NCBI GenBank assembly: GCA_020725925.1 | Contig: DYTN01000003.1 | Coordinates: forward strand, 18,591-82,590 | DNA from: Methanobacteriota archaeon | GTDB taxonomy: Archaea; Thermoplasmatota; Thermoplasmata; UBA10834 | Length of the DNA stretch: 64,000 nucleotides | Direction of reading: 5' to 3' | Shown: in pieces, positions 3,835 to 63,590 of the stretch | Position numbering within the stretch: position 1 is the stretch's first letter | How the letters are laid out: each line of letters starts with the position of its first letter | Translations under genes and position numbers: made by a program | The notes under the pieces: model-generated | What the model saw: the letters and a program-made list of their open reading frames with translations, nothing else | Database searches by the model: none | What the model was told of the DNA's origin: nothing

Positions 3835-3970
3835 CTACGGCCAAGAGGCTCCGAAGAGCCTTGGGCTTCCCGAGGGCTCGCGCACCTCAGTACCGCGAAG
3901 AACGTAGGCGGGCTTAACTTCTGGGTTCGGAATGAGACCAGGTGTGGCCCCGCCACTTTGGCCGTCAGAC
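3835..3970 (-). rRNA. 5S ribosomal RNA, stand-alone and not linked to a 16S/23S operon
   Basis: The minus-strand sequence GGCGGGGCCACACCTGGTCTCATTCCGAACCCAGAAGTTAAGCCCGCCTACG...GGTACTGAGGTGCGCGAGCCCTCGGGAA matches the universal 5S loop B/C/helix III-IV consensus (CCACCUGAxCCCAUxCCGAACUCAGAAGUxAAxC...GUACUGxxGUGCGxGAGCCUCUGGGAA). Helix I is GACGGCCAAAG / CTCTTGGCCGT. Ends are ±5 nt. Confidence 0.75.
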
Positions 3971-45788: not shown

Positions 45789-48257
45789 TCACTCGGCAGA
45801 GGGCAACCGGACCTTGAAGACCGAGCCCTGGGCATGGTTGCCCCTGATCCTGTCCTCGACCCAGACGCTGCCCCCGTATCTTCTGGCCAGGGTCTTCACA
45901 ATGTGCAGGCCCATGCCTGAGCCCTTCTTCTGAGGGGCCTTCGAGAACCTGTCGAAGATAACTGCCTTGATGTCGTCGGGGATGCCCCTGCCCCTGTCCG
46001 AGACTGACACAATGTGATATCTCGTGTCGTCCTCGAACACCTGCTCGACGCCGACGTCTATCAGCACCTTCTCGGAGCTGTCGTACTTCACCGCATTCGT
46101 GAGTATGTTGATGAACAGCTCCTTGATCAGTTCGTCCGCCTCTGTGAACCACGCTCCCTGCTTCAGCTCGTGGCTGACAGTGATCTTCCTTCCTGGGTAG
46201 TACTGGGACACGCACTTCACGCACTCGAGGAGCACGGCGCCCAGGTCCGTCTTTGTGAGCTCGACATCCCCGAAGGTCACCCTGGACATCGTCCGGACAT
46301 TGCTGGCCAGCCAGCTGGTGTTCATCACCTGCTCCCCCACCTTGTCGATGAGGGCGATGTTCTCGGGCTTGTCCAGCCTCATCCTGAGCAGGTCCAGGTA
46401 GCCCAGGATGGCCTGGTTGAAGTTCTTGATGTCGTGGGAGAGCACATCGGTGTACAGCTCGGCGTCCGCCCGGCTGTCTATGTGGTCCTGGAACATGCGG
46501 GCGTTCTCGATCGCGATGCCAGCCAGGCTCGCGAAGATCTCTATCACCTCCACCGTTTCGGGGTCGGGGACCCTGTCGTCCCTCGGTTTGAGTATCTCGA
46601 GATATGCGATGGGCACCCCCCGGTTGTCGAGTATTATGGTGTCCATCCAGTCGAGCTCGTGCCAGTGCCCCTTGCCAGTCCTGGGCTTCCTGAGCAGCTC
46701 GGGTTCAGGATAGTACGCGAGTTCTTCCGGCAGGAGGCTGTCCTGGCTCTCCGCAGGCATGTAGTATGTCATCCGGCCCATCTTGGTCCACCAGCGGACC
46801 TTCGTTCCCGGGGGCCGCCCTCCACCTGACTCGATTATGCCATCCACCTGGGGTATCGGGTAGGTGACCTGCTTGATCGCCTCCGTGGCCTTCGGGGTGT
46901 ACCCGAAGACCGCCTCCACCTTGTACGCGCCCTCGTCCTCGTGCTTGATGCCTATGACCATCCTCTTGATGCCCAGCAGCCTCGCCAGGGTCCTCAGCAG
47001 ATGGTCGAGCATCTGGTCCAGGTCCCTCACGTACATGATGCCCGTTGCAAGGTCGAGGATCCTCGAGAGCTGCTCGGTCCTCTGACTGCTTATCCTATGG
47101 GCCTGCTCCCTCTCGTGAGCGAGCCTAACGTTCTCGATGGCAACCTCCGCGAGCGAAGTGAATATCTCGACCGTCTCCAGAGTCTTCTTGTCCGGTATAT
47201 TGCCGTCCTTGGGCTCAGACGCGTAGATGACCCCGCCGACCCTCCCTGCCGCATCGTGGAGGGCGAACGCCAGGAAGTCCCCCCGGCGCATCTCGCCCTT
47301 TCGACGGGGTGGGAAGGAGGCGCGTTCCCGGGCTGTGGGCGGGGAGACAAAGTACTCCCAGCTCTTCGGGCTGACCTCCTCTGCAATGCTCAGGTAGGCC
47401 GTCTTGCCCAGCCGCCTGCTCTCCCTCAAGTCCTCCAGAACGACGTCAGTCGGTATCGCCCTCAGCTTCGCCCCTCTCGAAAGCTCCGCCGCGTATCCGA
47501 ACAGCGCCACCCACTTGAACACCCCCTCGGCCTCGTCGTGGACCACGAGGGTGACCTTCCCGAACCCGAACAGGGACGCCAGCGAGCTGAGTATCATTTC
47601 GGAGAGCTTGTTGAAGTCCCTCTCGGAGACTATCGAAGACGATATCGTCAGGACGTCCTCGAGGAGCTCCGTCCGCTCCAGGGCCGCCCTGGCCTCCGGC
47701 TGCGCCGGGGCCTGCCTGTCCCTCTCCCTGGCCAGGGCCATGGCCACCATCTGGACGAAGTCGTCTATGCCCTCGAGCGCCTCCTTGGACAGCAGCCTGC
47801 CGTCTTCCGAGTACTCGAGCTCGAGCCAGCCCAGGCGTTCCCCCGCGCAAGTCGTCAACGAGTACCTGTACGCGTCCGCCTCGTGCCATTCTTCAGGGCT
47901 CGTCCGGGGCTTCCGGGAATCCTCGGGCCGCCTATAGTACGACGGGTGTTCGATGAACGGGTCCTCTTGGATGATGCTGTACCACTCTTCCGCAGGGAGG
48001 TAGTAGCCGCAGCGCGAGACCTTCGTCCCCCTGGCGAAGATCCTCTCCGCGAGGTCCTTTGGGTGGTAGTCCGCGCTCAGGTTCTCGACGGCGCCCTTCG
48101 CGCGCTCACCGGGGAGGCCGTACACCGCCCAGCGGGGGGCCACCTGGAGGTCTTCCGCCGTGACCTCGAAAAGCATCTCGGCAATCCCGTAGATCTCGGC
48201 GATGTCCGTGAGCGCCTTCTCAAACACCTCCGCCAGAGGACGTTCCCTCAGCACCAT
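45789..48257 (-). CDS. Soluble multi-GAF-domain sensor histidine kinase. The start is uncertain; the track ORF extends to 48527.
   Basis: C-terminal HisKA (SHDIKNFNQAILGYLDLL) and HATPase_c (N-box NAVKY, DRGRGIP, GSGMGL) preceded by about 3 GAF-like modules. There are no TM segments. Confidence 0.8.
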   Translation of the reverse strand: MVLRERPLAEVFEKALTDIAEIYGIAEMLFEVTAEDLQVAPRWAVYGLPGERAKGAVENLSADYHPKDLAERIFARGTKVSRCGYYLPAEEWYSIIQEDPFIEHPSYYRRPEDSRKPRTSPEEWHEADAYRYSLTTCAGERLGWLELEYSEDGRLLSKEALEGIDDFVQMVAMALARERDRQAPAQPEARAALERTELLEDVLTISSSIVSERDFNKLSEMILSSLASLFGFGKVTLVVHDEAEGVFKWVALFGYAAELSRGAKLRAIPTDVVLEDLRESRRLGKTAYLSIAEEVSPKSWEYFVSPPTARERASFPPRRKGEMRRGDFLAFALHDAAGRVGGVIYASEPKDGNIPDKKTLETVEIFTSLAEVAIENVRLAHEREQAHRISSQRTEQLSRILDLATGIMYVRDLDQMLDHLLRTLARLLGIKRMVIGIKHEDEGAYKVEAVFGYTPKATEAIKQVTYPIPQVDGIIESGGGRPPGTKVRWWTKMGRMTYYMPAESQDSLLPEELAYYPEPELLRKPRTGKGHWHELDWMDTIILDNRGVPIAYLEILKPRDDRVPDPETVEVIEIFASLAGIAIENARMFQDHIDSRADAELYTDVLSHDIKNFNQAILGYLDLLRMRLDKPENIALIDKVGEQVMNTSWLASNVRTMSRVTFGDVELTKTDLGAVLLECVKCVSQYYPGRKITVSHELKQGAWFTEADELIKELFINILTNAVKYDSSEKVLIDVGVEQVFEDDTRYHIVSVSDRGRGIPDDIKAVIFDRFSKAPQKKGSGMGLHIVKTLARRYGGSVWVEDRIRGNHAQGSVFKVRLPSAE

Positions 48258-48571
48258 CGCCGCGAGCGCCCCGAGCCTCTCGCTGACCACGCGAGCTCGT
48301 TTCTCCGGATCGTCCGGAAGGGGTGCCCTCGCACCGATTGGGGGAATGACCAGGGCTCCACCCGAGGCTTCCTTGACTGTCGCACGATCACCTGGTACGG
48401 GATTTCGGCCGCTGCTTTTGAGATTGGCTTTTCGGATATTTAATATGCGAGAGGCGGTGCTCAGCCAGCATCGCGAGGGGTTGGTTTCTGGACCCTGCCC
48501 ACCCAATCTGCGCCCAGTTCTGCGCAATTCTTAATAAGGGTGCGGCCCTTCATTCGCTGAAGAGAGCAGGG

Positions 48572-50422: not shown

Positions 50423-52117
50423 GTGAAGCGGTATATACGGGGATTCCCATACGCCGCCCGAGGGGACCACTTGACATTCGACATCGGCGTTCTCGGCGGC
50501 CGCGTGGTAGACGGCGCAGGAAACCCTTGGTACTTGGGCGACATCGGCGTCAAGGGAAAGAGGATAGCGGAGATCGGGAGCATACGCAGGGGCGAGTGCA
50601 GGCGCGCCATAGACGCGCGGGGGACATACGTGTGCCCCGGGTTCGTAGACATACATACGCACTCAGACATAACCGCGATAGTGTATCCCGGGTGCGACAG
50701 CACGCTCAGGCAGGGCGTCACCACCCATCTGATCGGCAACTGCGGCTCGTCCGCGGCCCCCATAAGGGAGCCGTACGTGGAGACCTGGAAGAACTACTGG
50801 GGAGAGTGGGCGGGGCACGCGGATGTCTGGAACTGGAGGACATTCGACCAGTACCTGACTGTCCTGGAGAGGCGGGGCGTCGGGCACAACATAGCCGCCC
50901 TCGTCGGCCACGGTGCGGTCCGGACAGCTGTCCTGGGAGCCGCGAGGAGGGCGCCGAAACCCCAAGAGCTCGGGGAGATGAAGGACCTGGTCGAGGAGGC
51001 CATGGTCGCCGGGGCGTTCGGCCTGTCCACCGGTCTGGTATATCCCCCCGGGAGCTTCGCGAAGACCCGGGAGATAGTCGAACTGTGCAAGGTCGTCGCG
51101 AGGTACGGCGGGATGTACACGTCACATATACGTGGGGAGCGGGAGACCATCCTCGATGCAATCAGGGAGGCGATCCTGATCGGCGAGAAGACCGGGATGC
51201 GGGTGCAGATCTCGCACAACTGCCCCAAGATCGGCGCCTGGGGCCGGACGCAGGAGACCCTCGGACTAGTTGAGGAGGCCAGGAGGAGAGGGCTCGACGT
51301 GACGGTCGACAACGACGTCCACACCGACCTGGCGCCCGCGCTCAGGAGCGCCCTCCCGCAGTATCTGCACGAGCTGACGAAGGAGGAGCTGCTCGAGCAC
51401 CTCAGGTCCGAGGAGAACAGGCGGCGCATACGACAGGAGATAGTCGAGGACAAGCTCCCGGCGTTCGGGCCGGCGGGCCTACTGAGACACGGCCTGTTCG
51501 ACAGGATAGTCCTGATGCACTGCCCGGGGCGGAGAGACCTCGAGGGCAAGACGATCGCCCAGGTGGCGAAGGCGCGGGGAGAGGACCCGTTCGAGACGTA
51601 CTTCGACCTGATCGTGGACGAGGGTGACGATGTCATAGCCATATTCGACTACATCAGCGAGGAGGACATCAGGAGGCTCCTTGTGCACCCGCTCGTGATG
51701 GTGTCCTCGGACTGCTCGACCTGGTCAGAGAAGGGCCCGCTCGCGACCCCGCCGCCGTACTTCCCCTGCGCGTTCGGGGAGTACCCGGGCATATTCGAGC
51801 GGTACGTCAGGGACGAGCCGGTACTGACCATCGAGGAGGCGGTGCGGAAGATGACTAGCTTCCCCGCGCAGAAGATAGGTCTCTTCGACCGCGGGCTGCT
51901 GAGGCCGGGGCTGGCCGCAGACATCACCGTGATCGACCTGGCCAGGATCAAGGACAGAGCGACCAATGGATGGCCTCACTCGCATCCGTTCAAGAACTAC
52001 CCCCACAGGTACCCTGAGGGGGTGCCGTACGTGATCGTGAACGGTAAGGTGGCTGTGGACAAGGGCAGGCAGGCCAAGGTCCTCGCAGGGGAAGTGCTGA
52101 GGCACAGGCAGAAGTGA
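50423..52117 (+). CDS. N-acyl-D-amino-acid deacylase (D-aminoacylase) family amidohydrolase
   Basis: N-terminal beta-sandwich (GGRVVDGAGNPWYLGDIGVKGKRIAEIG), the metal motif VCPGFVDIHTHSD, and a 560-aa length. Confidence 0.8.
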   Translation: MKRYIRGFPYAARGDHLTFDIGVLGGRVVDGAGNPWYLGDIGVKGKRIAEIGSIRRGECRRAIDARGTYVCPGFVDIHTHSDITAIVYPGCDSTLRQGVTTHLIGNCGSSAAPIREPYVETWKNYWGEWAGHADVWNWRTFDQYLTVLERRGVGHNIAALVGHGAVRTAVLGAARRAPKPQELGEMKDLVEEAMVAGAFGLSTGLVYPPGSFAKTREIVELCKVVARYGGMYTSHIRGERETILDAIREAILIGEKTGMRVQISHNCPKIGAWGRTQETLGLVEEARRRGLDVTVDNDVHTDLAPALRSALPQYLHELTKEELLEHLRSEENRRRIRQEIVEDKLPAFGPAGLLRHGLFDRIVLMHCPGRRDLEGKTIAQVAKARGEDPFETYFDLIVDEGDDVIAIFDYISEEDIRRLLVHPLVMVSSDCSTWSEKGPLATPPPYFPCAFGEYPGIFERYVRDEPVLTIEEAVRKMTSFPAQKIGLFDRGLLRPGLAADITVIDLARIKDRATNGWPHSHPFKNYPHRYPEGVPYVIVNGKVAVDKGRQAKVLAGEVLRHRQK

Positions 52118-52121
52118 GAGC

Positions 52122-53195
52122 TCAGAGCTCGTACTTCCTAAGTTCTCCCTGGCAGGGGTTGCCGTAGCACACCCAGGCCGCCCTGTTGGTCAGGTCGAAC
52201 ACGACTGAGAAGATCGACTGCGTCTGCTCCTCCTCATCGAGGGCTGGGTCGGCATGCCGGCATATGGATTCGGGGTACCCGACATGGTCCGAGAGGATCC
52301 GCTTGAAGGTCGAGACCTCGACCTTCCCGAGCTCCTTCTTGAAGAGCTTGGTCGCCCTGTTGTACCTTACGATGGATGAGAACCGAGTGTGCAAGTTCTC
52401 CTCGAACCTCCACATCTTCGGGGACAGGTAGTGGTTCGTGTGCACGAGCCACCCGTTCTCGGCATACAGGGCTTCGAAGGCCGTCGCCGACCCTTCCATG
52501 CTGTATATCTCCCCGTTCGAGTCAGTCACGATGTTGTTGAAGCTGTGGCCCCTTCCCTCTGGCATGGATGCCTTGAGGGCCTGATAGATGCCCGACTCCG
52601 CCAGGACCTTCCTGCAGGGGACTATCTTGGGTATCCCGACCCTGGTGTCGTTCGGGACGAGGGCGTTCCCTGTTAGGCAGATGCCCGCGGCGTTCATGCC
52701 CGCGGTAGGCCAGATGCCGCCGTAGTTCATGCCCAGGTAGCCGGGCTCGTCCTTTGGCCGGATCCGAGCGATTGCGATGTCGAAGATGTTGTACGGGCTC
52801 ACATCCTCGTTGTGTGCCGCGAGCACGCAGTCGTCCTTGGTCCACTCAGCGTTCACCACGATGTCCGTGCACCCCCTCCCCCGGCCACGGTCAGAGAGGT
52901 CGCACGACATCGCATAGACCATGTCGAGCTTGATCCCCGTCCCCGCGGCATAGCCTTCGAGCTCCTCCATGTAGCCCGGGTAGAACTGCCTGGTCGCGGG
53001 CATGCTCCTCCTGGCATATGCGACCGCCTTCTCGAGGCCGAACTCCGGCGACCTGAACCACGACCGGAAGCGCTTCTCGGACCTGAGGGCCATGTCCCTG
53101 CACTGCTTGCCAATCGACCGGCCAATCTCGAAATGGCTCCCGGACGCCGAGACTTCCCTGAAAGCGCCTGGGGCGCCCTTCCTAGGCATCTGCAT
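52122..53195 (-). CDS. Peptidase C45 / acyl-CoA:6-APA acyltransferase-family Ntn-hydrolase
   Basis: RGRG-CT autoproteolytic site (Gly-Cys nucleophile) and a family-typical beta-sandwich. The start is uncertain; the track ORF extends to 53357. Confidence 0.65.
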   Translation of the reverse strand: MQMPRKGAPGAFREVSASGSHFEIGRSIGKQCRDMALRSEKRFRSWFRSPEFGLEKAVAYARRSMPATRQFYPGYMEELEGYAAGTGIKLDMVYAMSCDLSDRGRGRGCTDIVVNAEWTKDDCVLAAHNEDVSPYNIFDIAIARIRPKDEPGYLGMNYGGIWPTAGMNAAGICLTGNALVPNDTRVGIPKIVPCRKVLAESGIYQALKASMPEGRGHSFNNIVTDSNGEIYSMEGSATAFEALYAENGWLVHTNHYLSPKMWRFEENLHTRFSSIVRYNRATKLFKKELGKVEVSTFKRILSDHVGYPESICRHADPALDEEEQTQSIFSVVFDLTNRAAWVCYGNPCQGELRKYEL

Positions 53196-53310
53196 CCACC
53201 TGCTCGAGGCTTCGGGCAACCTGATAACGGTACGACGAGAAAAGACTAGCGATTGCCGTCCCCACAGGGGCGAGCAAGATTTATGACCGGCCTCGCCTGT
53301 CCACCGGACC

Positions 53311-53505
53311 ATGCCCAAGGTGGAGCTCGAGTACAGGTGCAGGAAGTGCAAGAACATCTATCCCGCGACAGCAACCTTCACGGGCAGGATCGAGGATCTA
53401 GACATGGACGAGAACCAGTCCCGGTGTCCCTTCTGCGGCGAGTGGAACTGCGCGGACCCGAAGTCGGTCGAGCAGATCATCAAGGACGCAAAGAGGAAGG
53501 GCTGA
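53311..53505 (+). CDS. Small zinc-ribbon protein (64 aa)
   Basis: CRKC...CPFCGEWNC, i.e. two CxxC pairs. It has its own ATG and good coding GC3. Confidence 0.45.
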   Translation: MPKVELEYRCRKCKNIYPATATFTGRIEDLDMDENQSRCPFCGEWNCADPKSVEQIIKDAKRKG

Positions 53506-53727: not shown

Positions 53728-56319
53728 ATGGAAGCAGGTAAGGAACCTGAGAAAGAGCCAGCTCCAGAGACGCTCCCTACGGAGGTCAAGGAGGAGCGGC
53801 CGAAGAAGACCATGCTTCTGGCTGTGATCGTGGCGGTCGTCGTAGTGGTCGCCGCAATAGCTGCTGCGTGGGGTCTCGGCCTGTTTGGCGGGGAAGAGGA
53901 GAACTTGCCGCCAACCGCTGGAGCCAGGGCATTGACACCAACGTCCATCGACATAGGTGGATACGTGGTGATTGAGTCTACGGCGACCGACCCTGACGGG
54001 ACCATCGAGTTATACGAGTGGTTCTTCGGGGACGGTACGAATGCCAGCGGGGCCACACTGAGCACTGTCAACCACACGTTCGAGTACGGAGGGTCGTACC
54101 TGGTCCTGCTCAAGGTGACTGACGACGTGGGAGATTCCGCCACGAACGCGGCCAACATGGTCCGCGTCACCGTCAAGTACTACGAGCCACCGGAAGACCC
54201 CGCGGATTGGGACAACGACACCGCACCGCTCGCGCTGCTTGCGTCAGATGCTGACGTTGTCGAGCCTGGGACGGTCGTCAACTTCAACATGACCGGCTCG
54301 TTCGGCATCAAGTGGCAGTGGATCAACGAGAGCAACCACTCGGAGGGTTCGGAGTTCGTGGGCAGCTGGGAGTACATCTCCTCGATGAAGCTCACGCCAG
54401 GCGAAGGGTCAGCTGACAAGACCGTCACGCCTGCTGAGTACATGACATCGTCCCACAACTACACGACTTCTGGTCACTATGCGTCCAAGCTCAATGTCAC
54501 GGGCGACAACGGCGCATACACGATCGTCATGAGGACCATCCACGTGCTGGAGCCCGAGGTCACGCCCCCAGGGGCGATAAAGAACCCCGACGCGTTCATA
54601 GAGGTCACGATCGGTGAGCCTGACTACCTCGACCCGGCAGTCGACTACGAGACTGCGGGCGGCGAGGTCATCATGAACACCTACGAGAACCTCGTATGGT
54701 ACCAGAGGGACAGCGTCGAGGTCCTTGTCCCGTGGCTGGCGACGGCCGTGCCAACGGTGGCGAACGGCGGCATCTCGACCGACGGCATGAACTACACGTT
54801 CAACCTCAGGTCGGGTGTCAAGTTCCACGACAACACGACCATGGACGCGGACGACGTCGAGTTCTCCATCGAGAGGGTTCTGAGGATACACGACCCGGAC
54901 GGGCCGTCATGGATGCTGGAGCAGATCATGAACGACTACCTACAGTACTATGTCGGCGGGCCGCTTTGGGACTTCAAGAACGACTCCTACGGAGTGCAGT
55001 GGGTCTTTGACGCGATCGGCGGGACGGACAACTTCTACGAGATAACCGAGCTGGATGTCCAGAACGTCAGCGAGGCCGCGGTGGTGAAGGTGGACAGCGA
55101 CACAGTCACCTTCAAGCTGACGCACCCGTACCCAGGGTTCTTGCAGATCGCTGCGTACACGGTGATGTGCATCCTCAGCAAGGACTTCGTGACGGCCCAC
55201 GGTGGCGTCGTCAACGCTGAGCACAACGCGTACATGGACGAGCACACCATGGGCACAGGTCCGTACAAGCTCGTGACGTGGGAGAAGGGCTCGAGGATAC
55301 ACCTGACGAGATGGGACGGATACTGGGGCACCAAGCCCGCGCTGAAGGACGTCTACATCGTGAAGGCCAACGATGTGAACACGAGGATCCTGATGCTGCA
55401 GGCTGGCGACGCAGACTCCGGCTACATCCCGATCGAGTACGAGTCCCTGTTCACGGGTGACGAGTTCGACATCACGAAGGGTCTGGCGACGTTCAACATC
55501 GACTTCGTCGGGTTCAACTTTAACATCAACACGACGGCTGCAGCGGCTTGGGGCAGCAACGTGCCTGCGGACTTCTTCACCGATGTCAACGTCAGGATGG
55601 CGTTCGTGCACATGATGGACTCCGAGGGGTTCATAGACACCTACCTCAAGGGCAACGCGATAGTGCCCAACGGGCCGATTCCGAAGGGCATGTTCGGGTA
55701 CAACGCCTCAGCGCCGACGTACGACTACGACCTGGTGAAGGCGAGATCGTACCTTGAGAACGCTACCAACGTAGGTACGGGCACCTCGTGGTGGGAGAGC
55801 GGGTTCGAGATTGCATTCCTCTTCAACGCGGGCAACCTCGCGAGGGAGACGGCGTGCAAGTACCTCAAGGACGCCCTGGAGTCGCTGAACTCCGTTACGG
55901 GAGGGCTGGCGCACGGCACCTTTGCCGCGACGGTCAACGCGCTCGACTGGCCTTCGTACCTGGCCGCAGTCAGGAGCTCACCAGGCCCGCTGCCGGTGTT
56001 CTTCCTCGGCTGGGCGCCCGACTACGCCGACCCGGACGACTACGCGAACCCGTTCATGTACTCGCACGGCTCGTTCCCGCTCAGGACCGGATATGCGAAC
56101 GACACGATGGACGACCTGGTGCTGGCGGCGGCCGAGGAGCTCGACACGGACACGAGGGAGGATCTCTACCATCAGATCATCACCTTGTGCTACGAGCAGG
56201 CACCGTACATCTGGTTGGCGCAGGCCAACAACTTCCACATCGAGAGGACGTGGGTGAACGGGTACTACTTCAACCCGATGTACGCTGGGTTCTACTTCGC
56301 GTCGTTCAGCAAGGGATGA
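53728..56319 (+). CDS. ABC transporter substrate-binding protein (family 5, oligopeptide/dipeptide/nickel) with N-terminal TM anchor and PKD domain
   Basis: TM anchor (MLLAVIVAVVVVVAAIAAAWGL), PKD module (YEWFFGDGTNASG), then an SBP_bac_5 core (GEPDYLDPAVDYETAGGEVIMNTYENLVWY...). Many NxS/T sequons. Confidence 0.85.
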   Translation: MEAGKEPEKEPAPETLPTEVKEERPKKTMLLAVIVAVVVVVAAIAAAWGLGLFGGEEENLPPTAGARALTPTSIDIGGYVVIESTATDPDGTIELYEWFFGDGTNASGATLSTVNHTFEYGGSYLVLLKVTDDVGDSATNAANMVRVTVKYYEPPEDPADWDNDTAPLALLASDADVVEPGTVVNFNMTGSFGIKWQWINESNHSEGSEFVGSWEYISSMKLTPGEGSADKTVTPAEYMTSSHNYTTSGHYASKLNVTGDNGAYTIVMRTIHVLEPEVTPPGAIKNPDAFIEVTIGEPDYLDPAVDYETAGGEVIMNTYENLVWYQRDSVEVLVPWLATAVPTVANGGISTDGMNYTFNLRSGVKFHDNTTMDADDVEFSIERVLRIHDPDGPSWMLEQIMNDYLQYYVGGPLWDFKNDSYGVQWVFDAIGGTDNFYEITELDVQNVSEAAVVKVDSDTVTFKLTHPYPGFLQIAAYTVMCILSKDFVTAHGGVVNAEHNAYMDEHTMGTGPYKLVTWEKGSRIHLTRWDGYWGTKPALKDVYIVKANDVNTRILMLQAGDADSGYIPIEYESLFTGDEFDITKGLATFNIDFVGFNFNINTTAAAAWGSNVPADFFTDVNVRMAFVHMMDSEGFIDTYLKGNAIVPNGPIPKGMFGYNASAPTYDYDLVKARSYLENATNVGTGTSWWESGFEIAFLFNAGNLARETACKYLKDALESLNSVTGGLAHGTFAATVNALDWPSYLAAVRSSPGPLPVFFLGWAPDYADPDDYANPFMYSHGSFPLRTGYANDTMDDLVLAAAEELDTDTREDLYHQIITLCYEQAPYIWLAQANNFHIERTWVNGYYFNPMYAGFYFASFSKG

Positions 56320-56564
56320 GCTGGGACAGGTAGCGGAACCGCGAAAACCCCTTCACGAAACCTCTTCCATTTCCATGATTTTCGATGACTGGGCGGCGCA
56401 TCGCTCGCCCGCGCCTTGCTCGACGCAATCTGGCTCAGCTACCAAACAGAGGTCTGGGGGAAAAGGTAGAAATACACCGAACCCGTGTATCGAAACCACC
56501 AGAAGACCTACCCAACAGGTGATGCCAGCTGCAGCTCCTTACGTACATAATCAGGCGTCTGCTT

Positions 56565-57545
56565 TTGCTCATTCCAGTGCTCATTGGCGTCTCGGTCCTT
56601 ACATTCATGATCATGAGGGCTGCGGGGGACCCCGTGACCGCGTACCTGCAGAACCCCGAGAAGGCGACCGAGCAGCAGATTCAGGCCATCATCAAGAAGT
56701 ATCACCTCGACGAGCCGAACTACATACAGTACTGGTACTGGCTGGACGGCATCGTCCACGGGGACTGGGGCATCAGCCAGCAATCCAAGGAACCTGTGAC
56801 TGAGACCCTCGCCAAGAAATTCCCGGCGACATTCGAGCTAGCCCTCGTCGCAACGGCGCTTGCCGTCTCGATCGGCATATCCGTCGGGACAAGGGCGGCG
56901 GTCAGGGTCAACTCTGCCTTCGACCAGGGCACGAGGGTCGTCTCGCTGATAGGTGTCTCGATACCTGTCTTCTGGCTCGGCGTGCTCCTGCTCGCGCTGT
57001 TCTACTATCAGCTCAATTGGGCGCCAGAACCCGGACGGATCGACAAGGAGTTCGACATCGTTCCCAAGTACACGAACTTCATGCTGATTGACAGCGCCCT
57101 GAACCTCAACTTCGACATGTTCGTCAACGCCATCGCCCACCTGGTCCTCCCCGCGATAACCCTGTGCTTCGCCTCGACGGCGATCATCATCAGGATCATG
57201 CGCTCGAGCATGCTCGAGGTGCTCGGTGCTGAGTACGTGAGGACTGCGCGCTCGAAGGGGCTCCCCGAGAATGTCGTCACCCGGAAGCACGCCCGGAGGA
57301 ACGCCCTCATACCGACGACAACCGTGGTCGGCCTGAGCTTCGGCGGACTCCTGGGAGGAGCTATCCTGACTGAGACCATCTTCCTCTGGCCAGGCCTTGG
57401 CCAGTGGAGCGCCGGGGCGGCGCTGAACCTGGACACTGCCGGAATCATGGGCTTCACCATGCTGACGGCGTTCATCTATGTGCTAGCGAACCTGACCGTC
57501 GATCTCATCTACGCCCGCTTGGACCCGAGAGTGAGGTTGGGATAG
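56565..57545 (+). CDS. ABC transporter permease (OppB/DppB-like)
   Basis: TTG start in the track. The true N-terminus probably extends upstream (...YIIRRLLLLIPVLIGVSVLTF is in frame after a TGA), so the start is unresolved. EAA-loop region is present. Confidence 0.82.
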   Translation: MLIPVLIGVSVLTFMIMRAAGDPVTAYLQNPEKATEQQIQAIIKKYHLDEPNYIQYWYWLDGIVHGDWGISQQSKEPVTETLAKKFPATFELALVATALAVSIGISVGTRAAVRVNSAFDQGTRVVSLIGVSIPVFWLGVLLLALFYYQLNWAPEPGRIDKEFDIVPKYTNFMLIDSALNLNFDMFVNAIAHLVLPAITLCFASTAIIIRIMRSSMLEVLGAEYVRTARSKGLPENVVTRKHARRNALIPTTTVVGLSFGGLLGGAILTETIFLWPGLGQWSAGAALNLDTAGIMGFTMLTAFIYVLANLTVDLIYARLDPRVRLG

Positions 57546-57567
57546 GGCCGTCAAGGAGGACAGGGCG

Positions 57568-58557
57568 ATGAATCCATTGAAGGAAGAGAAGTCGGCTCCA
57601 AAGAAGGCGCCAGCTACCCCTGGAAAGGGGAGGGAGGCTCCCACTACCTCCGGTCGATTGCTCGGAGAGGTGAGGCGAGCCCTAGCACCAAGGATCAGGG
57701 AGCTCAAGTTCGACTTCCACCTGATGTCCAGGAGCCTCACCTCGTTGGCGGGCCTGTTCCTCTTGGCGGTCCTCATCGCGGTCGCCGCCTTCCCATGGTT
57801 GCTGACCGAGCCTGCGCCTGGGCGCGACCCCTACCTGCTGCCCTTCGACAGGAACACGCCGGACCCCTTGCCCCCGAGCGCGGACCACCTGTTCGGGACC
57901 GGGAAGTACGGCGCGGACATCTTCTACGGGGTCGTATGGGGCTCGAGGATCTCAATGAGCTTCGCGATCCAGGTCGTCGGCCTGTCCGTCATATTCGGGA
58001 CCATTCTGGGTCTCATCTCTGGGTACAAGGGAGGACTCATCGACGAGGTCATGATGAGGGTGACCGATGTCTTCCTCTCCATACCCTCGCTGGTCCTCGT
58101 TATGGCGATCGCCGCCGCGCTCGGCAAGAACCTCGAGTCCACCAAGCTGGCGCTCATGGCTGTCTGGTGGTCTGGATACACCAGGATCATCAGGGGACAG
58201 GTCCTTTCCGTGCGCGAGAACACGTACATCGATGCCGCAAGGGCCTCTGGCTCCGGCGAGCTCAAGATAATGTTCAGGCACGCGCTGCCCAACTCCTGGC
58301 CACCCGTGCTCGTGGCGGCCACCATGGACATGGGGAGCGTCGTGCTCACGATGGCGGCCCTGAGCTTCCTCGGGCTGGGCGCACAGTCCGGGTACTCCGA
58401 GTGGGGCAAGATGGTCTACGACGGGCAGCAGTACTTCTACCGGGGGGACTGGTGGATGGTCGTCTTCCCAGGCATGGCCATCCTGGTCTTCGTCATGGCG
58501 TTCAACCTCTTGGGCGACGGGCTCAGGGACGTCCTCGACCCGAAGATGAGGAGGTGA
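57568..58557 (+). CDS. ABC transporter permease (OppC/DppC-like)
   Basis: Basic N-terminal extension then the OppC-type TM core (GTGKYGADIFYGVVWGSRISM...). Confidence 0.85.
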   Translation: MNPLKEEKSAPKKAPATPGKGREAPTTSGRLLGEVRRALAPRIRELKFDFHLMSRSLTSLAGLFLLAVLIAVAAFPWLLTEPAPGRDPYLLPFDRNTPDPLPPSADHLFGTGKYGADIFYGVVWGSRISMSFAIQVVGLSVIFGTILGLISGYKGGLIDEVMMRVTDVFLSIPSLVLVMAIAAALGKNLESTKLALMAVWWSGYTRIIRGQVLSVRENTYIDAARASGSGELKIMFRHALPNSWPPVLVAATMDMGSVVLTMAALSFLGLGAQSGYSEWGKMVYDGQQYFYRGDWWMVVFPGMAILVFVMAFNLLGDGLRDVLDPKMRR

Positions 58558-58564
58558 GCTTCCG

Positions 58565-60178
58565 ATGGTTGCCGAAGAGAACCTGCTGGTGGAGTTGGAC
58601 GACCTGTACGTCAACTTCTACACGTACCAGGGCATCGTCAAGGCCATCGATGGCGTCAACCTCGAGATACGCAGGGGCGAGACCCTCGGCCTGGTAGGAG
58701 AGACCGGCTGCGGGAAGAGCGTCACCGCGAGCACGATCATGAAGCTCGTGCTGAGCCCGCCGGGCAAGATCGAGATGGGTAGCATCTATTTCATGGAGCC
58801 GCCCGAGGTCAGGGCGAAGAGGAGCGAGTACGAGGCGAAGGGCCAGGACTGGTACGCCAGGCTCCCGCACGACCACAAGGTGCGGCTCGCGGCATCGCAT
58901 GGGCTGAGGTTCTCGGGCTTCAAGAGGCGGCCCAAGCCGCTCACGAAGAAGGAGCTCGCGGAATTCAAGCCTCCCGAGAAGGCCTCCAACAAACTCCTGG
59001 CATCGTACATGTCCGAGATGGCCAAGAAGGTCCCCAAGGAGGACAAGACCACCCTGGACGCCCTGAAGAAGGCCTTCGACCTGATACCGAAGAGCAACGC
59101 GTACATGCAGAAGATAAGGGGCAAGTGGATCTCCATGATCTTCCAGGAGCCCACGAGCGCCCTGAACCCCGTGTTCACCGCGGGTGACCAGATCTCGGAG
59201 GTCATACTGCTCCACAGGCGCGCCGAGATGGCCAAGGAGGCGCTCGTGCGGATAGAGGCGGAGACGAAGACCGCCGAAACCAAAGGAAGGCCTCACAAGC
59301 TCGCGAAGAAGTCCAAGTCCAAGGAGGGCAACCCCGGAGAGAAGGAGATCCATGCGTGCTCGCACTGCGACGGGCAGGTCGAGCCCGAGGACCCTTGGTG
59401 CAGCAGCTGCGGCGTCCAGTTCTACGGCCCCATCAGGTGGACCCTCCGGAAGCCCTTTGTCAAGACGAGCAGGCGGATGCTCCAGAGGATCGCGAAGAAC
59501 CCGGACGCACCCGAGTTCTTCGTCGGCCGGATCCCGCTGTTCAACCTCTTCAAGAAGGACATGTACAACGAGGCCCTCAGGGAGTCCGTCAGGATGCTCC
59601 GGATCGTGCGCATACCGGACCCTGTGGGGGTGGCCTTCAGGTACCCGTACGAGCTGAGCGGCGGGATGCAGCAGAGGGTCATGATAGCCATCGCCCTGGC
59701 GTGCAACCCGAAGCTCCTCATCGCGGACGAGCCCACCACGGCGCTCGATGTTACGATCCAGGGACAGATCCTGAAGCTCATGAGGGACCTCAAGTCGGAG
59801 TACGGAAGCTCGATCCTGCTCATCACTCACAACCTCGGCGTCGTCGCGGAGATGTGCGACCGAGTGGGGGTCATGTACGCGGGCGCGATGGCCGAGGTCG
59901 CCGCCGCGAGGACGATATTCAAGCTCCCGCTGCACCCGTACACGATGGGCCTGATGAAGGCCGTCCCGTCGGCGCAGATGGACGCCAAGGAGCTCTACAC
60001 GATCAGGGGCACAGTGCCCAACCTCATATTCCCGCCGAGCGGGTGCAGGTTCCACCCGAGGTGCGACTACGCGAAGAAGTACTGCTCGGTGCACAGGCCT
60101 GAGCTCAGGGAGATCGAGCCCGACCACTTCGTCGCATGCCACATGGTGACCAAGGAGGAGGGGTACGTCCATGGCTGA
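58565..60178 (+). CDS. ABC transporter ATPase (OppD/DppD-like) with two roughly 100-aa insertions, the second containing a Cys4 zinc ribbon
   Basis: Walker A GETGCGKS, Q-loop MIFQEP, signature LSGGMQQRV, Walker B LIADEPTTALD, and C-terminal oligopeptide/dipeptide domain. It is 537 aa against the usual 330 or so. The insert carries CSHCDGQ...CSSCG. Confidence 0.85.
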   Translation: MVAEENLLVELDDLYVNFYTYQGIVKAIDGVNLEIRRGETLGLVGETGCGKSVTASTIMKLVLSPPGKIEMGSIYFMEPPEVRAKRSEYEAKGQDWYARLPHDHKVRLAASHGLRFSGFKRRPKPLTKKELAEFKPPEKASNKLLASYMSEMAKKVPKEDKTTLDALKKAFDLIPKSNAYMQKIRGKWISMIFQEPTSALNPVFTAGDQISEVILLHRRAEMAKEALVRIEAETKTAETKGRPHKLAKKSKSKEGNPGEKEIHACSHCDGQVEPEDPWCSSCGVQFYGPIRWTLRKPFVKTSRRMLQRIAKNPDAPEFFVGRIPLFNLFKKDMYNEALRESVRMLRIVRIPDPVGVAFRYPYELSGGMQQRVMIAIALACNPKLLIADEPTTALDVTIQGQILKLMRDLKSEYGSSILLITHNLGVVAEMCDRVGVMYAGAMAEVAAARTIFKLPLHPYTMGLMKAVPSAQMDAKELYTIRGTVPNLIFPPSGCRFHPRCDYAKKYCSVHRPELREIEPDHFVACHMVTKEEGYVHG

Positions 60179-61544
60179 GCTCCCGAAGGCGGACGGCACG
60201 AACCTGTTCGACGTCGTCGGCCTGAAGAAGTACTTCCCCATCAGGGCCGGCCTGCTGAAGAGGCAGGTCGGGGCGGTGAAGGCCGTCGATGATGTCAACT
60301 TCTTCGTCCGCAAGGGCGAGACCCTGGGCCTGGTGGGCGAGAGCGGATGCGGCAAGACGACCGTCGGCCGCGCCATGATGATGCTGACGCCTCCGACCGA
60401 GGGGTACGTGTTCTATTCCACGCCCAGACAGATAGTCAGGGACTTCGCGGAGCTGCTGAGGGTCGTCAGAGGTGTGAACAAGGGCAAGATGTCGCGGGCC
60501 GAGGCCCTCGAGCTCGCCCGGCTCATCGAGAAGATCCTGGGCTCAGGCTCCTGCACGGTCGATGAGGACAAGAAGAGGCAGATCTGCAGGGGCGCCGTTG
60601 CCATCAGAGCGGAGGTCCAGGCGCTCGGACCCGACGAAAAGGTCGGGGGCCGCGAGAGGGCTGTCCAGGACCTGGTCGACGACGCTATGACGGAGATCGT
60701 GGAGCGGTACTGCGTCAACTACAAGCGCAAGGGGGAGGTCAAGAGGCTCAGGGGGAAGATACAGTTCGTGTTCCAGGACCCGTTCTCCTCCCTGGACCCC
60801 AAGATGCTCATCAAGGACATAGTCGCCGAGCCGATAAAGGCGCAGTACAGGTACATCGACAGGCATCGCTGGGCCGCCAAGCCGAACCCGGCAGCCAAGG
60901 ACCGCATGGACAGGCCGTACAAGGTGCGCAAGCCCGAGGTCATCCGCACGCGGGTGATTCAGCTCCTGGAGAAGGTCGGCCTGAACGTGGAGCACATGTA
61001 CAGGTTCCCGCACGAGTTCTCGGGCGGGCAGAGGCAGAGGATAGGCATCGCGAGGGCGCTGTCCGTGGACCCCGAGTTCATCGTCCTGGACGAGCCCACA
61101 TCGGCCCTCGACGTCTCCGTCCAGGCGCAGATCCTGAACATGCTCAACCAGCTCCAGAACGAGTTCGGGCTCACGTTCCTGTTCATCTCCCACGACCTTA
61201 GCACCATCAGGCACATGTGCGACAGGGTGGCGGTCATGTACCTCGGCAAGATAGCGGAGTACGCGGACAAGAACGAGCTCTTCGCCCGCCCGACGCACCC
61301 GTACACCGAGGCCCTCCTCTCAGTCATACCTGTCCCTGACCCGGACCTGAAGAGGGACAGGATCATCCTGCCGGGCGATGTCCCCAGCCCAGCCAACCCG
61401 CCGCCGGGCTGCAGGTTCCACACCAGATGCCCGCTCGCAGTGGGCATATGCAAGGTCGTTGAGCCGCCCCTGATCGACACTGGCGGGGAACACTTCGTGG
61501 CATGCCATGTGCGCGCGCCAGCCCCCGGAATCAAGGCCCAGTGA
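60171..61544 (+). CDS. ABC transporter ATPase (OppF/DppF-like) with a roughly 100-aa insertion
   Basis: Walker A GESGCGKTT, FQDP Q-loop, FSGGQRQRIGIARAL, ILDEPTSALD. It is 457 aa against the usual 330 or so. Confidence 0.85.
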   Translation: MAELPKADGTNLFDVVGLKKYFPIRAGLLKRQVGAVKAVDDVNFFVRKGETLGLVGESGCGKTTVGRAMMMLTPPTEGYVFYSTPRQIVRDFAELLRVVRGVNKGKMSRAEALELARLIEKILGSGSCTVDEDKKRQICRGAVAIRAEVQALGPDEKVGGRERAVQDLVDDAMTEIVERYCVNYKRKGEVKRLRGKIQFVFQDPFSSLDPKMLIKDIVAEPIKAQYRYIDRHRWAAKPNPAAKDRMDRPYKVRKPEVIRTRVIQLLEKVGLNVEHMYRFPHEFSGGQRQRIGIARALSVDPEFIVLDEPTSALDVSVQAQILNMLNQLQNEFGLTFLFISHDLSTIRHMCDRVAVMYLGKIAEYADKNELFARPTHPYTEALLSVIPVPDPDLKRDRIILPGDVPSPANPPPGCRFHTRCPLAVGICKVVEPPLIDTGGEHFVACHVRAPAPGIKAQ

Positions 61545-61617
61545 CGAGGAGAGGCGCCGGGCCGTCCTCGATGCGATAGACAACCCGGCACTGGACGACT
61601 CCCAGGTCCTCCGGATC

Positions 61618-61866
61618 ATGAGGGCGCACCTGCCCTGGAAGGACTGGTTCTATTCGGAATTCCTCAGGTACTGGTTCTGGCTCGGGTTCCTGGCGCTGAA
61701 TACCTTCGCCCTGATGGAACTCGCGAGGGCCTACGGCATCAACGATGCTGTGGGGATCTTCGGGCTCATCCTTCTGTTCGTGCTCCTGGTGGCCCTGGAG
61801 TACAGACTATACAGGCGCCTCTGGCCGGAAGGCGCCCTGACAGGCCTCAAGGAGAGGCGCTGGTGA
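61618..61866 (+). CDS. Small 2-TM hypothetical membrane protein
   Basis: The track ORF (61507) overlaps oppF. There is an internal ATG at MRAHLPWKDWFY, with two hydrophobic helices. Confidence 0.3.
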   Translation: MRAHLPWKDWFYSEFLRYWFWLGFLALNTFALMELARAYGINDAVGIFGLILLFVLLVALEYRLYRRLWPEGALTGLKERRW

Positions 61867-61943: not shown

Positions 61944-63590
61944 ATGGAGCCCTATGTCGTAGTCGCGATTGCATGCGCGGCATACACCATCGCAGTCCTT
62001 GCAGGCCTATGGCGGGGATCCTGGAAGAGGCACGAGATATCCCTCTACGGCCCTGTCATGATCGTCCGCACCCACATTGGCCTGAAGCTGATGGGGCGCA
62101 TGGCGGGCGCGCGCAGGTTCTGGGCCGCCTATGGCAGGGTGTCCATCTGGGCTGTGATCGTCACGATGGCCATCACCACCCTGTACCTGGCAGGTCAGGC
62201 CGCCGAGGCCTACTGGGGCACAGGGACGCCTGAGCTGCAGGAGGAGCGGGAGGTGAAGCTCCCTGAGGGACCGTGGGCGGTCGTCCTGGCATACGTCGTA
62301 GTCGGGTTTCTGGTGGCAATCGTTGTCCACGAGTTCGCCCACGGGATCCAGGCGCTCGCCGCGAGGATCAGGCTGAAATCGACCGGCATACTGCTTCTGG
62401 TGATACCGATAGGCGCGTTCGTGGAAACCGACGACAGCGACCTGGACGCAGCTCCCAAGTACAGGCGACTCAGGCTGTACGCCTCCGGACCGGCCACGAA
62501 CCTCTTCACGGCCGCCCTGTGCCTGCTGCTCATCGGAGGGGTCTTGGGGCCCTCGCTGGAGCCCGTCTCGCCAGGCGCGGTCGTCGTCGACGTGGCTGCC
62601 GACTCACCCGCAGCGCTCTTCGGGCTGCCGCCCTGGAGCCAGGTCTTCTCGGTAGAGGGGCAGCCCGTCCTGGACGACCGGGACATGGAGGTCGTCTCTT
62701 TCGCAGAGCCTGGCGAGAGCGTGCGAGTGAGCATATTGTACAAGTCAAAGGAGCTCTCCGTCGCCCTTCCCGGGGGCGTGGTGCTGCACCATGTCTACGA
62801 CGGCCCCGGGTACGACGCAGGGCTCAGGGCGGGCATGATAGTCAGGAACCTAGACGACAGGACGATCAACACCCTCTCCGAGTTCAGGTCCGTCACCGAG
62901 AACGCCAGCCGGGTACAGCCAGTGAACATCACAGTGCTGAGGTATGGAATCGACGACGAAGGGGACATGGATTGGTTCGTGGAGGAGACCAGGATAAAGT
63001 CGGTGAACCTCACATCGAAGTGGCTCTACTACCGGACGCACTTCCCGAACGCGAACAGGGAGGAGTACAGGAACATCAGCTACATGGCCGTGACAGCGAC
63101 CGCCCTCGGAGTCATGGTCCGGGATGCGGACTACGTGGCCGACAGGGTGGCCAGGCCCCTGGAGGGCGTCCGGAGCGGAGGCGGCCTCGTCGACAGCGCC
63201 CGCAGGTTCGTCGCCTTGCCCCTGATAGGGTACTCGCCCGTGGTCTCCCCGGCCTCGGACCTCTATGAGCCCGCGGGCATCCTCGGGTTCGTGCCAGGGG
63301 GATTGTACTGGCCTATCCTGAACGTGCTCTACTGGGTCTTCTGGGCGAGCCTGATGCTCGCGCTTGCGAACGCGCTTCCGGCACTGCCGTTCGACGGAGG
63401 GTATATCCTGAGAGACCTGCTGAGGGAGCTCTCGCACAGATGGGGCCAGAGGTTCACCGGGCTGGACAGGGCAATCGGGAGGAAGCCCTTGACTGATGCC
63501 AGGATCGACGAGGTAGTGTGGTTCGTGTCCGGTGCGGTGATAATGGCTGCGACGATCATCATCATCCTCGAGCTGCTGGCCCCGGCATGA
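61944..63590 (+). CDS. Site-2 protease (peptidase M50) with PDZ domain(s), RseP-like
   Basis: HEFAHG (HExxH), PDZ-like GAVVVDVAADSPAALFGLPPWSQVFSVEG, and the late NALPALPFDGGYIL (LDG motif). Confidence 0.8.
   Translation: MEPYVVVAIACAAYTIAVLAGLWRGSWKRHEISLYGPVMIVRTHIGLKLMGRMAGARRFWAAYGRVSIWAVIVTMAITTLYLAGQAAEAYWGTGTPELQEEREVKLPEGPWAVVLAYVVVGFLVAIVVHEFAHGIQALAARIRLKSTGILLLVIPIGAFVETDDSDLDAAPKYRRLRLYASGPATNLFTAALCLLLIGGVLGPSLEPVSPGAVVVDVAADSPAALFGLPPWSQVFSVEGQPVLDDRDMEVVSFAEPGESVRVSILYKSKELSVALPGGVVLHHVYDGPGYDAGLRAGMIVRNLDDRTINTLSEFRSVTENASRVQPVNITVLRYGIDDEGDMDWFVEETRIKSVNLTSKWLYYRTHFPNANREEYRNISYMAVTATALGVMVRDADYVADRVARPLEGVRSGGGLVDSARRFVALPLIGYSPVVSPASDLYEPAGILGFVPGGLYWPILNVLYWVFWASLMLALANALPALPFDGGYILRDLLRELSHRWGQRFTGLDRAIGRKPLTDARIDEVVWFVSGAVIMAATIIIILELLAPA

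Follow-up and report, generated by a model that had tools for sequence, protein, structure and literature searches.

The 64,000-nucleotide stretch of contig DYTN01000003.1 analyzed here (the window), from a Methanobacteriota archaeon, contains a complete ATP-binding cassette (ABC) importer of the PepT family (Opp/Dpp type; TC 3.A.1.5), which consists of a substrate-binding protein (SBP), two permeases and two ATPases that form a heterodimeric pair. The locus comprises five tightly packed, co-directional open reading frames (ORFs) at 53728-61544 on the + strand, with short gaps or overlaps between them, and Thermoplasmatota-type archaea, Methanomassiliicoccales among them, share the orthologous operon as a conserved unit. 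In each ATPase, insertions are present at two sites of the nucleotide-binding domain (NBD), and this decorated-ATPase architecture is real, lineage-wide and apparently undescribed. The genes are arranged as follows:

53728-56319, + strand: SBP, 863 aa (SBP_bac_5, PKD_4)
56565-57545, + strand: OppB-type permease, 326 aa (BPD_transp_1, BPD_transp_1_N)
57568-58557, + strand: OppC-type permease, 329 aa (BPD_transp_1)
58565-60178, + strand: OppD-like ATPase, 537 aa (ABC_tran, oligo_HPY)
60171-61544, + strand: OppF-like ATPase, 457 aa (ABC_tran, oligo_HPY), with an 8-nt overlap with oppD
61507-61866, + strand: probable sixth operon gene, 119 aa (an ORF with a third-codon-position G+C content, GC3, of 0.85 and with homologues in the same position)

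The original prediction, made from the sequence alone, of an Opp/Dpp-type importer encoded by a five-gene operon is supported by matches to SBP_bac_5, to BPD_transp_1 in both permeases, and to ABC_tran and oligo_HPY in both ATPases. The five co-directional ORFs lie at the positions it gave, and a sixth gene probably has to be added. The nearest NCBIfam models of every component are of the Opp/Dpp/Nik/Gsi type and all matches are far below the equivalog cutoffs; the family is clear, and because every one of these cutoffs is missed, no substrate is assigned. The lengths of the two ATPases, 537 and 457 aa compared with approximately 330 aa in canonical members, are as predicted, and the collinear homologues are likewise long (470-790 aa for OppD and 410-600 aa for OppF).

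The borders of the insertions were obtained by aligning both ATPases to OppD of M. tuberculosis (8j5q_D). In the OppD-like protein, residues 8-62, 173-220 and 337-526 align as core blocks, and the corresponding blocks of the OppF-like protein are residues 19-80, 189-225 and 259-446. The Walker A, Q-loop, signature, Walker B and H-loop motifs are all located in both proteins, so that the catalytic motifs are intact, and the C-terminal oligo_HPY domain is present in both (66 and 68 bits). The OppD-like ATPase contains the following elements:

58697-58720, + strand: Walker A, GETGCGKS
58787-59080, + strand: insert 1, residues 75-172, a basic helical module of 98 aa
59138-59152, + strand: Q-loop, IFQEP
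59225-59572, + strand: insert 2, residues 221-336, 116 aa in the helical subdomain, ahead of LSGGM
59357-59410, + strand: Cys4 zinc-ribbon knuckles CSHC-x10-CSSC, CSHCDGQVEPEDPWCSSC, residues 265-282, with C265, C268, C279 and C282
59654-59668, + strand: signature, LSGGM
59714-59734, + strand: Walker B, LLIADEP

Insert 1 of the OppD-like ATPase is flanked by two strands, one after the Walker A helix and the other running into the Q-loop. It has a net charge of +9, and a W-Y...RF(T/S)GFK(K/R)R-x-KP signature recurs in it across the homologues; an alignment of the insert with its flanks (A3, residues 74-186) has a mean column identity of 61%. Structure prediction with AlphaFold2 (AF2), using homologue alignments as input, places helices at residues 80-99, 102-112, 128-133, 142-153, 161-167 and 178-184 with a predicted local distance difference test score (pLDDT) of approximately 90, and the basic loop 113-127 is predicted with lower confidence than these helices. 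For the whole protein, the pLDDT is 82 and the predicted template modelling score (pTM) is 0.79, with values of approximately 90 over residues 71-100, 140-180 and 201-310.

Insert 2 separates the first helix of the helical subdomain from the second. In the AF2 model, a helix (219-240) is followed by the strands of the Cys4 element, a second helix (289-311), a constant segment of approximately 45 aa and the pre-signature helix, and the insert is thus predicted to form a helical hairpin of approximately 22 residues per arm whose tip carries one zinc ribbon. For the ribbon region, the model shows short strands (245-249 and 261-265) as well as bridges extending up to residue 285, again at a pLDDT of approximately 90. 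The ribbon of the window protein falls below the Pfam cutoffs of 27 (DZR_2, 18.0 bits, E 0.0025; Zn_ribbon_3, 14.9 bits, E 0.018), whereas the homologue P0067, which contains five tandem ribbons, exceeds the Pfam thresholds (DZR, 33.5 bits; Zn_ribbon_3, 30.9 bits).

A search with the OppD-like protein yielded 103 cluster representatives with a single NBD, 469-789 aa in length; they come from assemblies of NCBI, JGI, ENA and Logan, and the named ones belong to Thermoplasmata, Candidatus Thermoplasmatota and Methanomassiliicoccales metagenome-assembled genomes (MAGs). Additionally, a genome scan for relatives returned three loci from Methanomassiliicoccales MAGs plus generic actinobacterial Opp genes. 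The homologues are collinear with the window protein through both inserts. The CxxC-x10-CxxC motif is found in 87 of the 103 (once in 78, twice in 8 and five times in 1; it is absent from 16), and the 10-residue spacer is kept in 97/99 ribbons. We estimate the chance expectation for such a Cys4 motif at approximately 1e-4 per protein of this composition. Judged by its sequence, the Cys4 element behaves as a zinc ribbon with a putative Zn site.

The OppF-like ATPase contains a corresponding set of elements:

60336-60359, + strand: Walker A, GESGCGKT
60417-60734, + strand: insert 1, residues 83-188, 106 aa, at the site equivalent to that of OppD insert 1
60768-60782, + strand: Q-loop, VFQDP
60846-60944, + strand: insert 2, residues 226-258, approximately 33 aa, very basic and of low predicted order
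61017-61031, + strand: signature, FSGGQ
61080-61097, + strand: Walker B, IVLDEP

The first insert is predicted to form four helices (86-101, 109-124, 132-150 and 159-180) with pLDDT values of 93-98 over residues 80-190, in a model with an overall pLDDT of 77 and a pTM of 0.80 that was likewise built from homologue alignments. It contains a near-invariant cysteine pair, C128-x10-C139 (60552-60587, + strand), which may constitute a metal half-site or a disulfide; a third cysteine, C181 in window numbering, is often kept in the motif RYC(I/V)N. The second insert occupies the same site of the helical subdomain as OppD insert 2. The OppF homologues (410-600 aa) keep insert 1. A word-indexed search with the OppF module recovered two ABC fragments only and missed known homologues, and was not used to define the distribution.

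These results agree with the original prediction in its placement of a basic insert of approximately 100 aa between the Walker A helix and the Q-loop of OppD, and of a second insert before the signature that carries a Cys4 zinc ribbon, expected at approximately 59355-59420. The zinc-ribbon assignment is supported by the conserved motif, the sub-threshold Pfam matches, the above-threshold matches of P0067 and the β-hairpins predicted by AF2. The predicted insert of approximately 100 aa at the equivalent first site of OppF is also present, and the smaller second insert of that protein had not been mentioned. The sharing of the inserts among orthologues, which had been proposed as a check, extends to approximately 100 collinear representatives per ATPase.

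An annotation artefact, in which a frameshift merges two ORFs, had been named as a possible source of the extra length. Each ATPase is encoded in one frame, and the GC3 of every core and insert segment in both is 0.89-0.94; this uniformity rules out both a frameshift and a foreign patch of recent origin. Together with the collinear homologues, these observations lead to the rejection of a merged-ORF origin. The suggestion that the inserts might be low-complexity linkers lacking conserved cysteines is likewise refuted by the sequence conservation, the high pLDDT and the fixed cysteine positions and spacing. Two antisense ORFs, at 58523-60376 (- strand, 617 aa) and 60543-61298 (- strand, 251 aa), are spurious shadows with a GC3 of 0.59, compared with 0.9 in the sense frames; lying opposite oppD and oppF, they are a by-product of a high-GC coding region and are not for annotation.

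A broader explanation of this kind would attribute the inserts to a frameshift, a misassembly, an intein-like or mobile element, or a functionless expansion. The visible fragmentation of one related contig (L015) and the variability of cassette copy number described below, which is compatible with low constraint, are in line with it. However, in addition to the single frames and uniform GC3, the same layout is found in approximately 100 independent cluster representatives from the four sources named above, the identity within A3 is high, the cysteine positions and their spacer are fixed, the AF2 confidence is high, and no match to intein or transposase families is found in Pfam scans of the proteins and inserts. 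The artefact part of this explanation is largely refuted, and the explanation as a whole is very improbable.

The presence of inserts at the same position in both ATPases had been taken to suggest a single lineage-specific module grafted onto the transporter. The inserts are genuine, lineage-specific and located at the sites named; however, a comparison of OppD insert 1 with OppF insert 1 gives an hhalign probability of 0.2% and the predicted folds are different, so a shared module at site 1 is rejected. The sequences suggest that the two site-1 inserts are independent gains at a permissive loop. Pfam comparisons of single sequences, and of the alignments member by member, give nothing consistent for either insert, and profile searches of the PDB give no match for A3 and noise only for A4. 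Neither the basic helical module nor the four-helix module of OppF appears to have been described as a domain before. A search of 1.84 billion representative proteins with a profile of the basic module gives six matches, all OppD-like, one of which is a frameshift-fused permease-ATPase fragment. No published description of zinc ribbons or of these modules in Opp/Dpp ATPases was found, and the literature on NBD insertions in Thermoplasmata, on zinc ribbons combined with ABC importers and on Mollicutes OppD/F yielded nothing relevant.

The basic module is not confined to the first site. A hidden Markov model (HMM) of OppD insert 1 detects further copies of this module of approximately 65 aa in insert 2 of many OppD homologues, one or two by the HMM and possibly more in the longest protein, P0062, by eye, and it also detects copies in OppF insert 2 of the homologues P0123, P0126, P0133 and P0155. 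Conversely, P0250 has insert 1 and a canonical second site, which indicates that the two OppD inserts are independent. Across the OppD family, the distance from the Q-loop to the signature ranges from 102 to 416 residues. The constant part of approximately 45 aa is always present, and the variable part consists of zinc ribbons (0, 1, 2 or 5), basic modules or a third module of approximately 65 aa. This third module, present in one or two copies, gives weak and scattered winged-helix matches, the best of which is to PqqD (E 2.7e-5, in 2/7 modules), with others to TrmB, GMT-wHTH and further families. Among P0067/P0098 (L014:8001-10064), P0068, P0077, P0085, P0062 and P0024, which range from 469 to 789 aa, the slot is occupied by five tandem ribbons, by one or two winged-helix-like modules, or by at least two extra basic modules. 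Judged from these sequences, the second site behaves as a variable slot for cassettes, in which one small domain can take the place of another. The insertions occupy two permissive loops of the ABC fold, one before the Q-loop strand and the other joining the first helix of the helical subdomain to the second.

The constant parts of the inserts bear on the possibility that they act as struts, which stabilize the OppD-OppF dimer or its contact with the permeases and have neither a ligand nor a regulatory role. The high pLDDT and pTM suggest that these parts are packed on the core, and OppD insert 1 has invariant residues at its entry (E78, P79, V82, R83 and R86) and exit (K176, M181, I184, R185 and G186). 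The Fe-S domain of the Opp/Dpp family is itself a stability element (PMC12136057). However, a strut should not vary between 0 and 5 ribbons or exchange domain types among relatives at 55-70% identity, and in L003 the OppD keeps both inserts while the OppF (360 aa) has none, so there is no obligatory interlocking pair. A purely structural role is unlikely. Specifically, it is the variation in copy number that disfavors a rigid strut, and the same variation fits avidity-type binding and relaxed constraint too.

The charge of the inserts points to a further possibility. In approximately 63 homologues of each ATPase, the net charge per 100 aa is +8.9 for OppD insert 1, +9.2 for OppD insert 2 and +13 for OppF insert 2, compared with +0.6 and +1.1 for the cores. 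Basic modules of this type could tether the motor to a polyanion, either the anionic cytoplasmic face of the membrane or nucleic acid, with the copy number setting the avidity; in one variant, the ribbons and winged-helix-like modules would make the importer a membrane-bound nucleic-acid-binding or gene-regulatory device. The high positive charge of three of the four inserts, the variation in copy number and the types of domain found in the slot (zinc ribbon, winged-helix-like and basic helical repeats), which are typical nucleic-acid binders, are all in agreement with such a tether. However, the ribbon of the window protein is acidic, OppF insert 1 is near neutral, the winged-helix matches are weak and scattered and the best of them, PqqD, is a peptide-binding winged helix-turn-helix, and no DNA- or RNA-binding family is matched above threshold. 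A polyanion tether is a possibility to be kept in mind, although a doubtful one.

The PqqD-like matches and the conserved cysteines might instead indicate trans-inhibition, in which the modules bind imported peptides, or sense a metal or redox signal through the cysteines, and switch the ATPase off in the manner of MetN C2 and ModC. The inserts are attached to parts of the NBD that move, in some relatives the slot holds a winged helix similar to PqqD/RRE (peptide-binding), and conserved cysteine pairs or quartets are present in the inserts of both ATPases. However, the PqqD similarity is sub-threshold and absent from the window protein, no ligand pocket was identified, and zinc ribbons are not known to serve as peptide sensors. 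Substrate sensing of this kind is improbable.

The reading to which we tentatively give the most weight, at somewhat less than an even chance, is that the insertions are cytoplasmic binding or regulatory appendages. The importer itself would work in the same way as E. coli Dpp/Opp, through delivery by the binding protein, alternating access and ATP hydrolysis, in line with established knowledge of ABC importers. The insertions would be non-catalytic and would bind a partner protein or a polyanionic surface, and could thereby tether or tune the motor. They would be rooted in the Q-loop strand and the helical subdomain, both of which change position in the course of the ATP cycle, so that occupancy of an appendage could bias the ATPase activity, as the regulatory domains of MalK, MetN and ModC do. 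The second site would act as a swappable cassette, with small binding domains displayed on a stalk.

Several points weigh against this interpretation. The observations fit regulation, tethering or scaffolding alike. The direction in which the appendages would project, and any contact with the partner ATPase or the membrane, are deduced from what is generally known about the ABC fold. Weak constraint, too, would give a variable copy number. OppF insert 1 lacks the basic character (+1.7 net charges per 100 aa), and the ribbon of the window protein has an isoelectric point of 4.35 within basic flanks. The class of substrate is also uncertain, because archaeal family-5 systems import oligosaccharides as well and the equivalog cutoffs are missed.

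Many uncultured Thermoplasmatota are credited with a lifestyle of peptide scavenging in which Opp/Dpp importers play a central part, and the recent bacterial structures serve as a template for these importers. A whole archaeal lineage runs its Opp/Dpp system with approximately 240 (OppD) and 140 (OppF) extra conserved, folded residues in the motor. If the appendages do bind a partner or a surface, they represent a new way to regulate or anchor an ABC importer; if they do not, they provide a clean natural example of insertions accepted by the ABC fold, which is useful for engineering.

Downstream of the inserts, both ATPases carry a four-cysteine motif near the C-terminus:

60044-60139, + strand: OppD C-x5-C-x6-C-x17-C (C494, C500, C507 and C525), a putative [4Fe-4S] site
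61410-61505, + strand: OppF C-x5-C-x6-C-x17-C (C414, C420, C427 and C445), a putative [4Fe-4S] site

The motif is invariant in approximately 63 homologues of each ATPase. Its spacing is identical to that of the [4Fe-4S] ligands of E. coli DppD/DppF, of which C284, C290, C297 and C315 of DppD bind the cluster (PMC12136057). The AF2 confidence falls to approximately 40 near these cysteines (OppD residues 471-488 and OppF residues 375-419, the latter reaching the first cysteine), as expected for a cofactor-dependent fold.

The SBP is composed of a short, charged cytoplasmic tail, a transmembrane (TM) anchor, a PKD domain, a PKD-like region and a family-5 SBP core. The core matches SBP_bac_5 (PF00496) over residues 333-781 (E 1.9e-65, 222 bits, cutoff 32.4), and the elements that precede it are as follows:

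53809-53883, + strand: N-terminal TM anchor, residues ~28-52, with a grand average of hydropathy of 2.2-2.9 in 20-residue windows
53932-54159, + strand: PKD domain, residues 69-144 (PKD_4, E 2.4e-16; PKD, E 2e-10)
54433-54522, + strand: matched core of a second, degenerate PKD/Ig-like domain (PKD_4, E 2.3e-4, 21.6 bits, below the cutoff of 27)

The first PKD domain is above the Pfam thresholds (PKD_4, 60 bits, cutoff 27; PKD, 40.9 bits, cutoff 23.5), and the degenerate match is located between it and the SBP core. The protein contains 16 N-x-S/T sequons; it is exposed on the surface, anchored in the membrane on a PKD stalk and probably glycosylated. The hydropathy and Pfam matches bear out the predicted TM-anchored SBP with a PKD domain ahead of the family-5 core. 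The PKD addition, described as uncommon, is not peculiar to this locus: PKD-SBPs are the norm in all four other loci examined, and the domain is kept in the orthologous SBPs of L001, L003 and L014. All matches of the SBP to NCBIfam equivalogs (DppA, OppA, NikA, GsiB and others) are far below cutoff. Given the neighboring amidohydrolase, C45-type peptidase and M50 protease genes, the transported substrate is probably peptides.

The permeases score 130 bits (OppB-type) and 127.5 bits (OppC-type) against BPD_transp_1. The best NCBIfam matches of the former are of the OppB/DppB/NikB type, and those of the latter are DdpC, Opp2C and NikC, all below cutoff. The listed start of oppB is the TTG at 56565, which lies in the middle of a conserved N-terminal motif. 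The sequence LLTYIIRRLLLL (conserved N-terminal YIIRRLLLL) is encoded in frame upstream of this TTG (56520-56567, + strand), immediately after a stop codon, and no ATG, GTG or TTG is present between that stop codon and the motif. The true start is probably upstream of the TTG, and the lack of these codons suggests that the start codon is non-canonical or that the assembly contains an erroneous base. No RNA structure was found in the 245-nt gap between the SBP gene and oppB (z -0.22).

The small protein encoded after oppF has two predicted TM helices, an acidic N-terminal tail and W-K-D-W ... R-Y-W motifs. Homologues of approximately 105-125 aa are present at L003:11613-11930 (32% identity, E 2e-15), L001:11964-12347 and L014:11612-11980, and their alignment (A6) contains invariant W, RYW, G, F, Y and W positions; the ORF is uncalled in L001, and the gene is missed in some assemblies. 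The stop codon of oppF lies within this ORF in the window, L001 and L014, whereas the ORF starts 10 nt downstream in L003. The location of its ATG inside the conserved ACHVR codons of oppF in the former three suggests translational coupling. The small membrane protein is probably the sixth member of the operon and a candidate to interact with the basic inserts of the ATPases. Its assignment as DUF6015 was rejected. A DUF6015 gene, usually present elsewhere between the operon and the M50 protease gene, is absent from the window.

In the four other loci (L001, L002, L003 and L014), the conserved block consists of the PKD-SBP, OppB, OppC, a long OppD, OppF, the small ORF, DUF6015 and M50. L003 belongs to Methanomassiliicoccales (2.55-Mb contig) and is the locus with the short OppF, and L014 is the five-ribbon variant. 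The M50 site-2 protease, which has PDZ domains and is encoded at 61944-63590 (+ strand) in the window, is downstream of the operon in every locus examined. The pairing of a site-2 protease with a peptide importer recalls the processing and import of bacterial pheromones and is an association only.

A more far-reaching proposal is that the slot in the helical subdomain is a plug-in adaptor site, in which exchangeable cassettes (zinc ribbons, winged-helix-like modules and basic repeats) couple the rotation of this subdomain, driven by ATP and substrate, to a cytoplasmic target, so that the importer doubles as a sensor that signals peptide flux to gene expression or to another machine. The target could be a regulator, nucleic acid or the co-transcribed small membrane protein, through its acidic tail. 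We regard the proposal as a long shot; if true, it would amount to MalK-MalT-type signaling hard-wired into the motor, in a lineage without a known equivalent.

The region upstream of the operon (50423-53357) encodes a D-aminoacylase-like enzyme (Amidohydro_3) on the + strand and, on the - strand, a peptidase of the C45/AAT family (acyl-CoA:6-APA acyltransferase-like), and the same pair is upstream in L015. Such a pair would fit a link between the importer and the catabolism of peptides or N-acyl-amino acids. Approximately 5 kb upstream of the operon, 45789-48527 (- strand) encodes a GAF-domain histidine-kinase-like protein of 912 aa (HATPase_c, GAF, DUF3369). A 5S rRNA gene is located at 3849-3969 (- strand; Rfam RF00001, 74.7 bits) with no other rRNA genes adjacent in the window, and no tRNA genes were found in the 64 kb.

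A comparison with the solved PepT importers (8z1v, 8z21, 8j5q and 8wd9; E. coli DppBCDF/OppBCDF and M. tuberculosis OppABCD/DppABCD) reveals that their ATPases are 327-336 aa long or fused, and at most 298/537 residues of the window OppD and 285/457 of the window OppF can be aligned to them. The solved proteins have a few residues where the window proteins have 98 + 116 aa (OppD) and 106 + 33 aa (OppF). The SBPs also differ, in that the window protein is TM-anchored with PKD domains, whereas those of the solved systems are periplasmic or lipid-anchored.

The long OppD and OppF of Mollicutes (NCBIfam NF043079, 561 positions, and NF043078, 649 positions) are also unusually long and are among the best matches. 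Residues 173-398 of the window OppF align to positions 379-609 of the Mollicutes profile and residues 335-525 of the window OppD to positions 342-532, which implies large extra segments ahead of the signature motif in these profiles. Membership in the models is rejected (287.7 against a cutoff of 740 and 322.5 against a cutoff of 800). Long Opp ATPases thus exist elsewhere, and the likeness, known from NCBIfam profile coordinates, is a lead only. For the ribbon, the families DZR (PF12773), DZR_2 (PF18912) and Zn_ribbon_3 (PF13248) have two CxxC knuckles separated by a short spacer, as in the window protein; these families have no assigned function, and membership explains little.

Accessory, non-catalytic NBD domains are known in MalK, MetN (C2) and ModC, where they bind a cytoplasmic ligand or partner and modulate the ATPase. 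Those regulatory domains are C-terminal extensions with known folds and ligands, whereas the window modules are internal insertions whose fold, except for the ribbon, is unclassified. Insertions between the Q-loop and the signature occur in UvrA (zinc modules and insertion domains), in Rad50/SMC (a coiled coil with a zinc hook) and in ABC-F proteins (the arm). The position of OppD insert 2 and its layout as a hairpin with a zinc module match these insertions, as an analogy only. Kinship with UvrA or Rad50 is rejected, in that the sequences are not related, the best structural matches are all transporter NBDs, the genes lie in a permease operon and oligo_HPY is present; the weak SMC_N Pfam matches of the ATPases arise from the split layout. 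Compared with Rad50/SMC, the stalk of the window OppD has approximately 22 residues per arm rather than hundreds, and its ribbon has four cysteines of its own rather than a shared hook.

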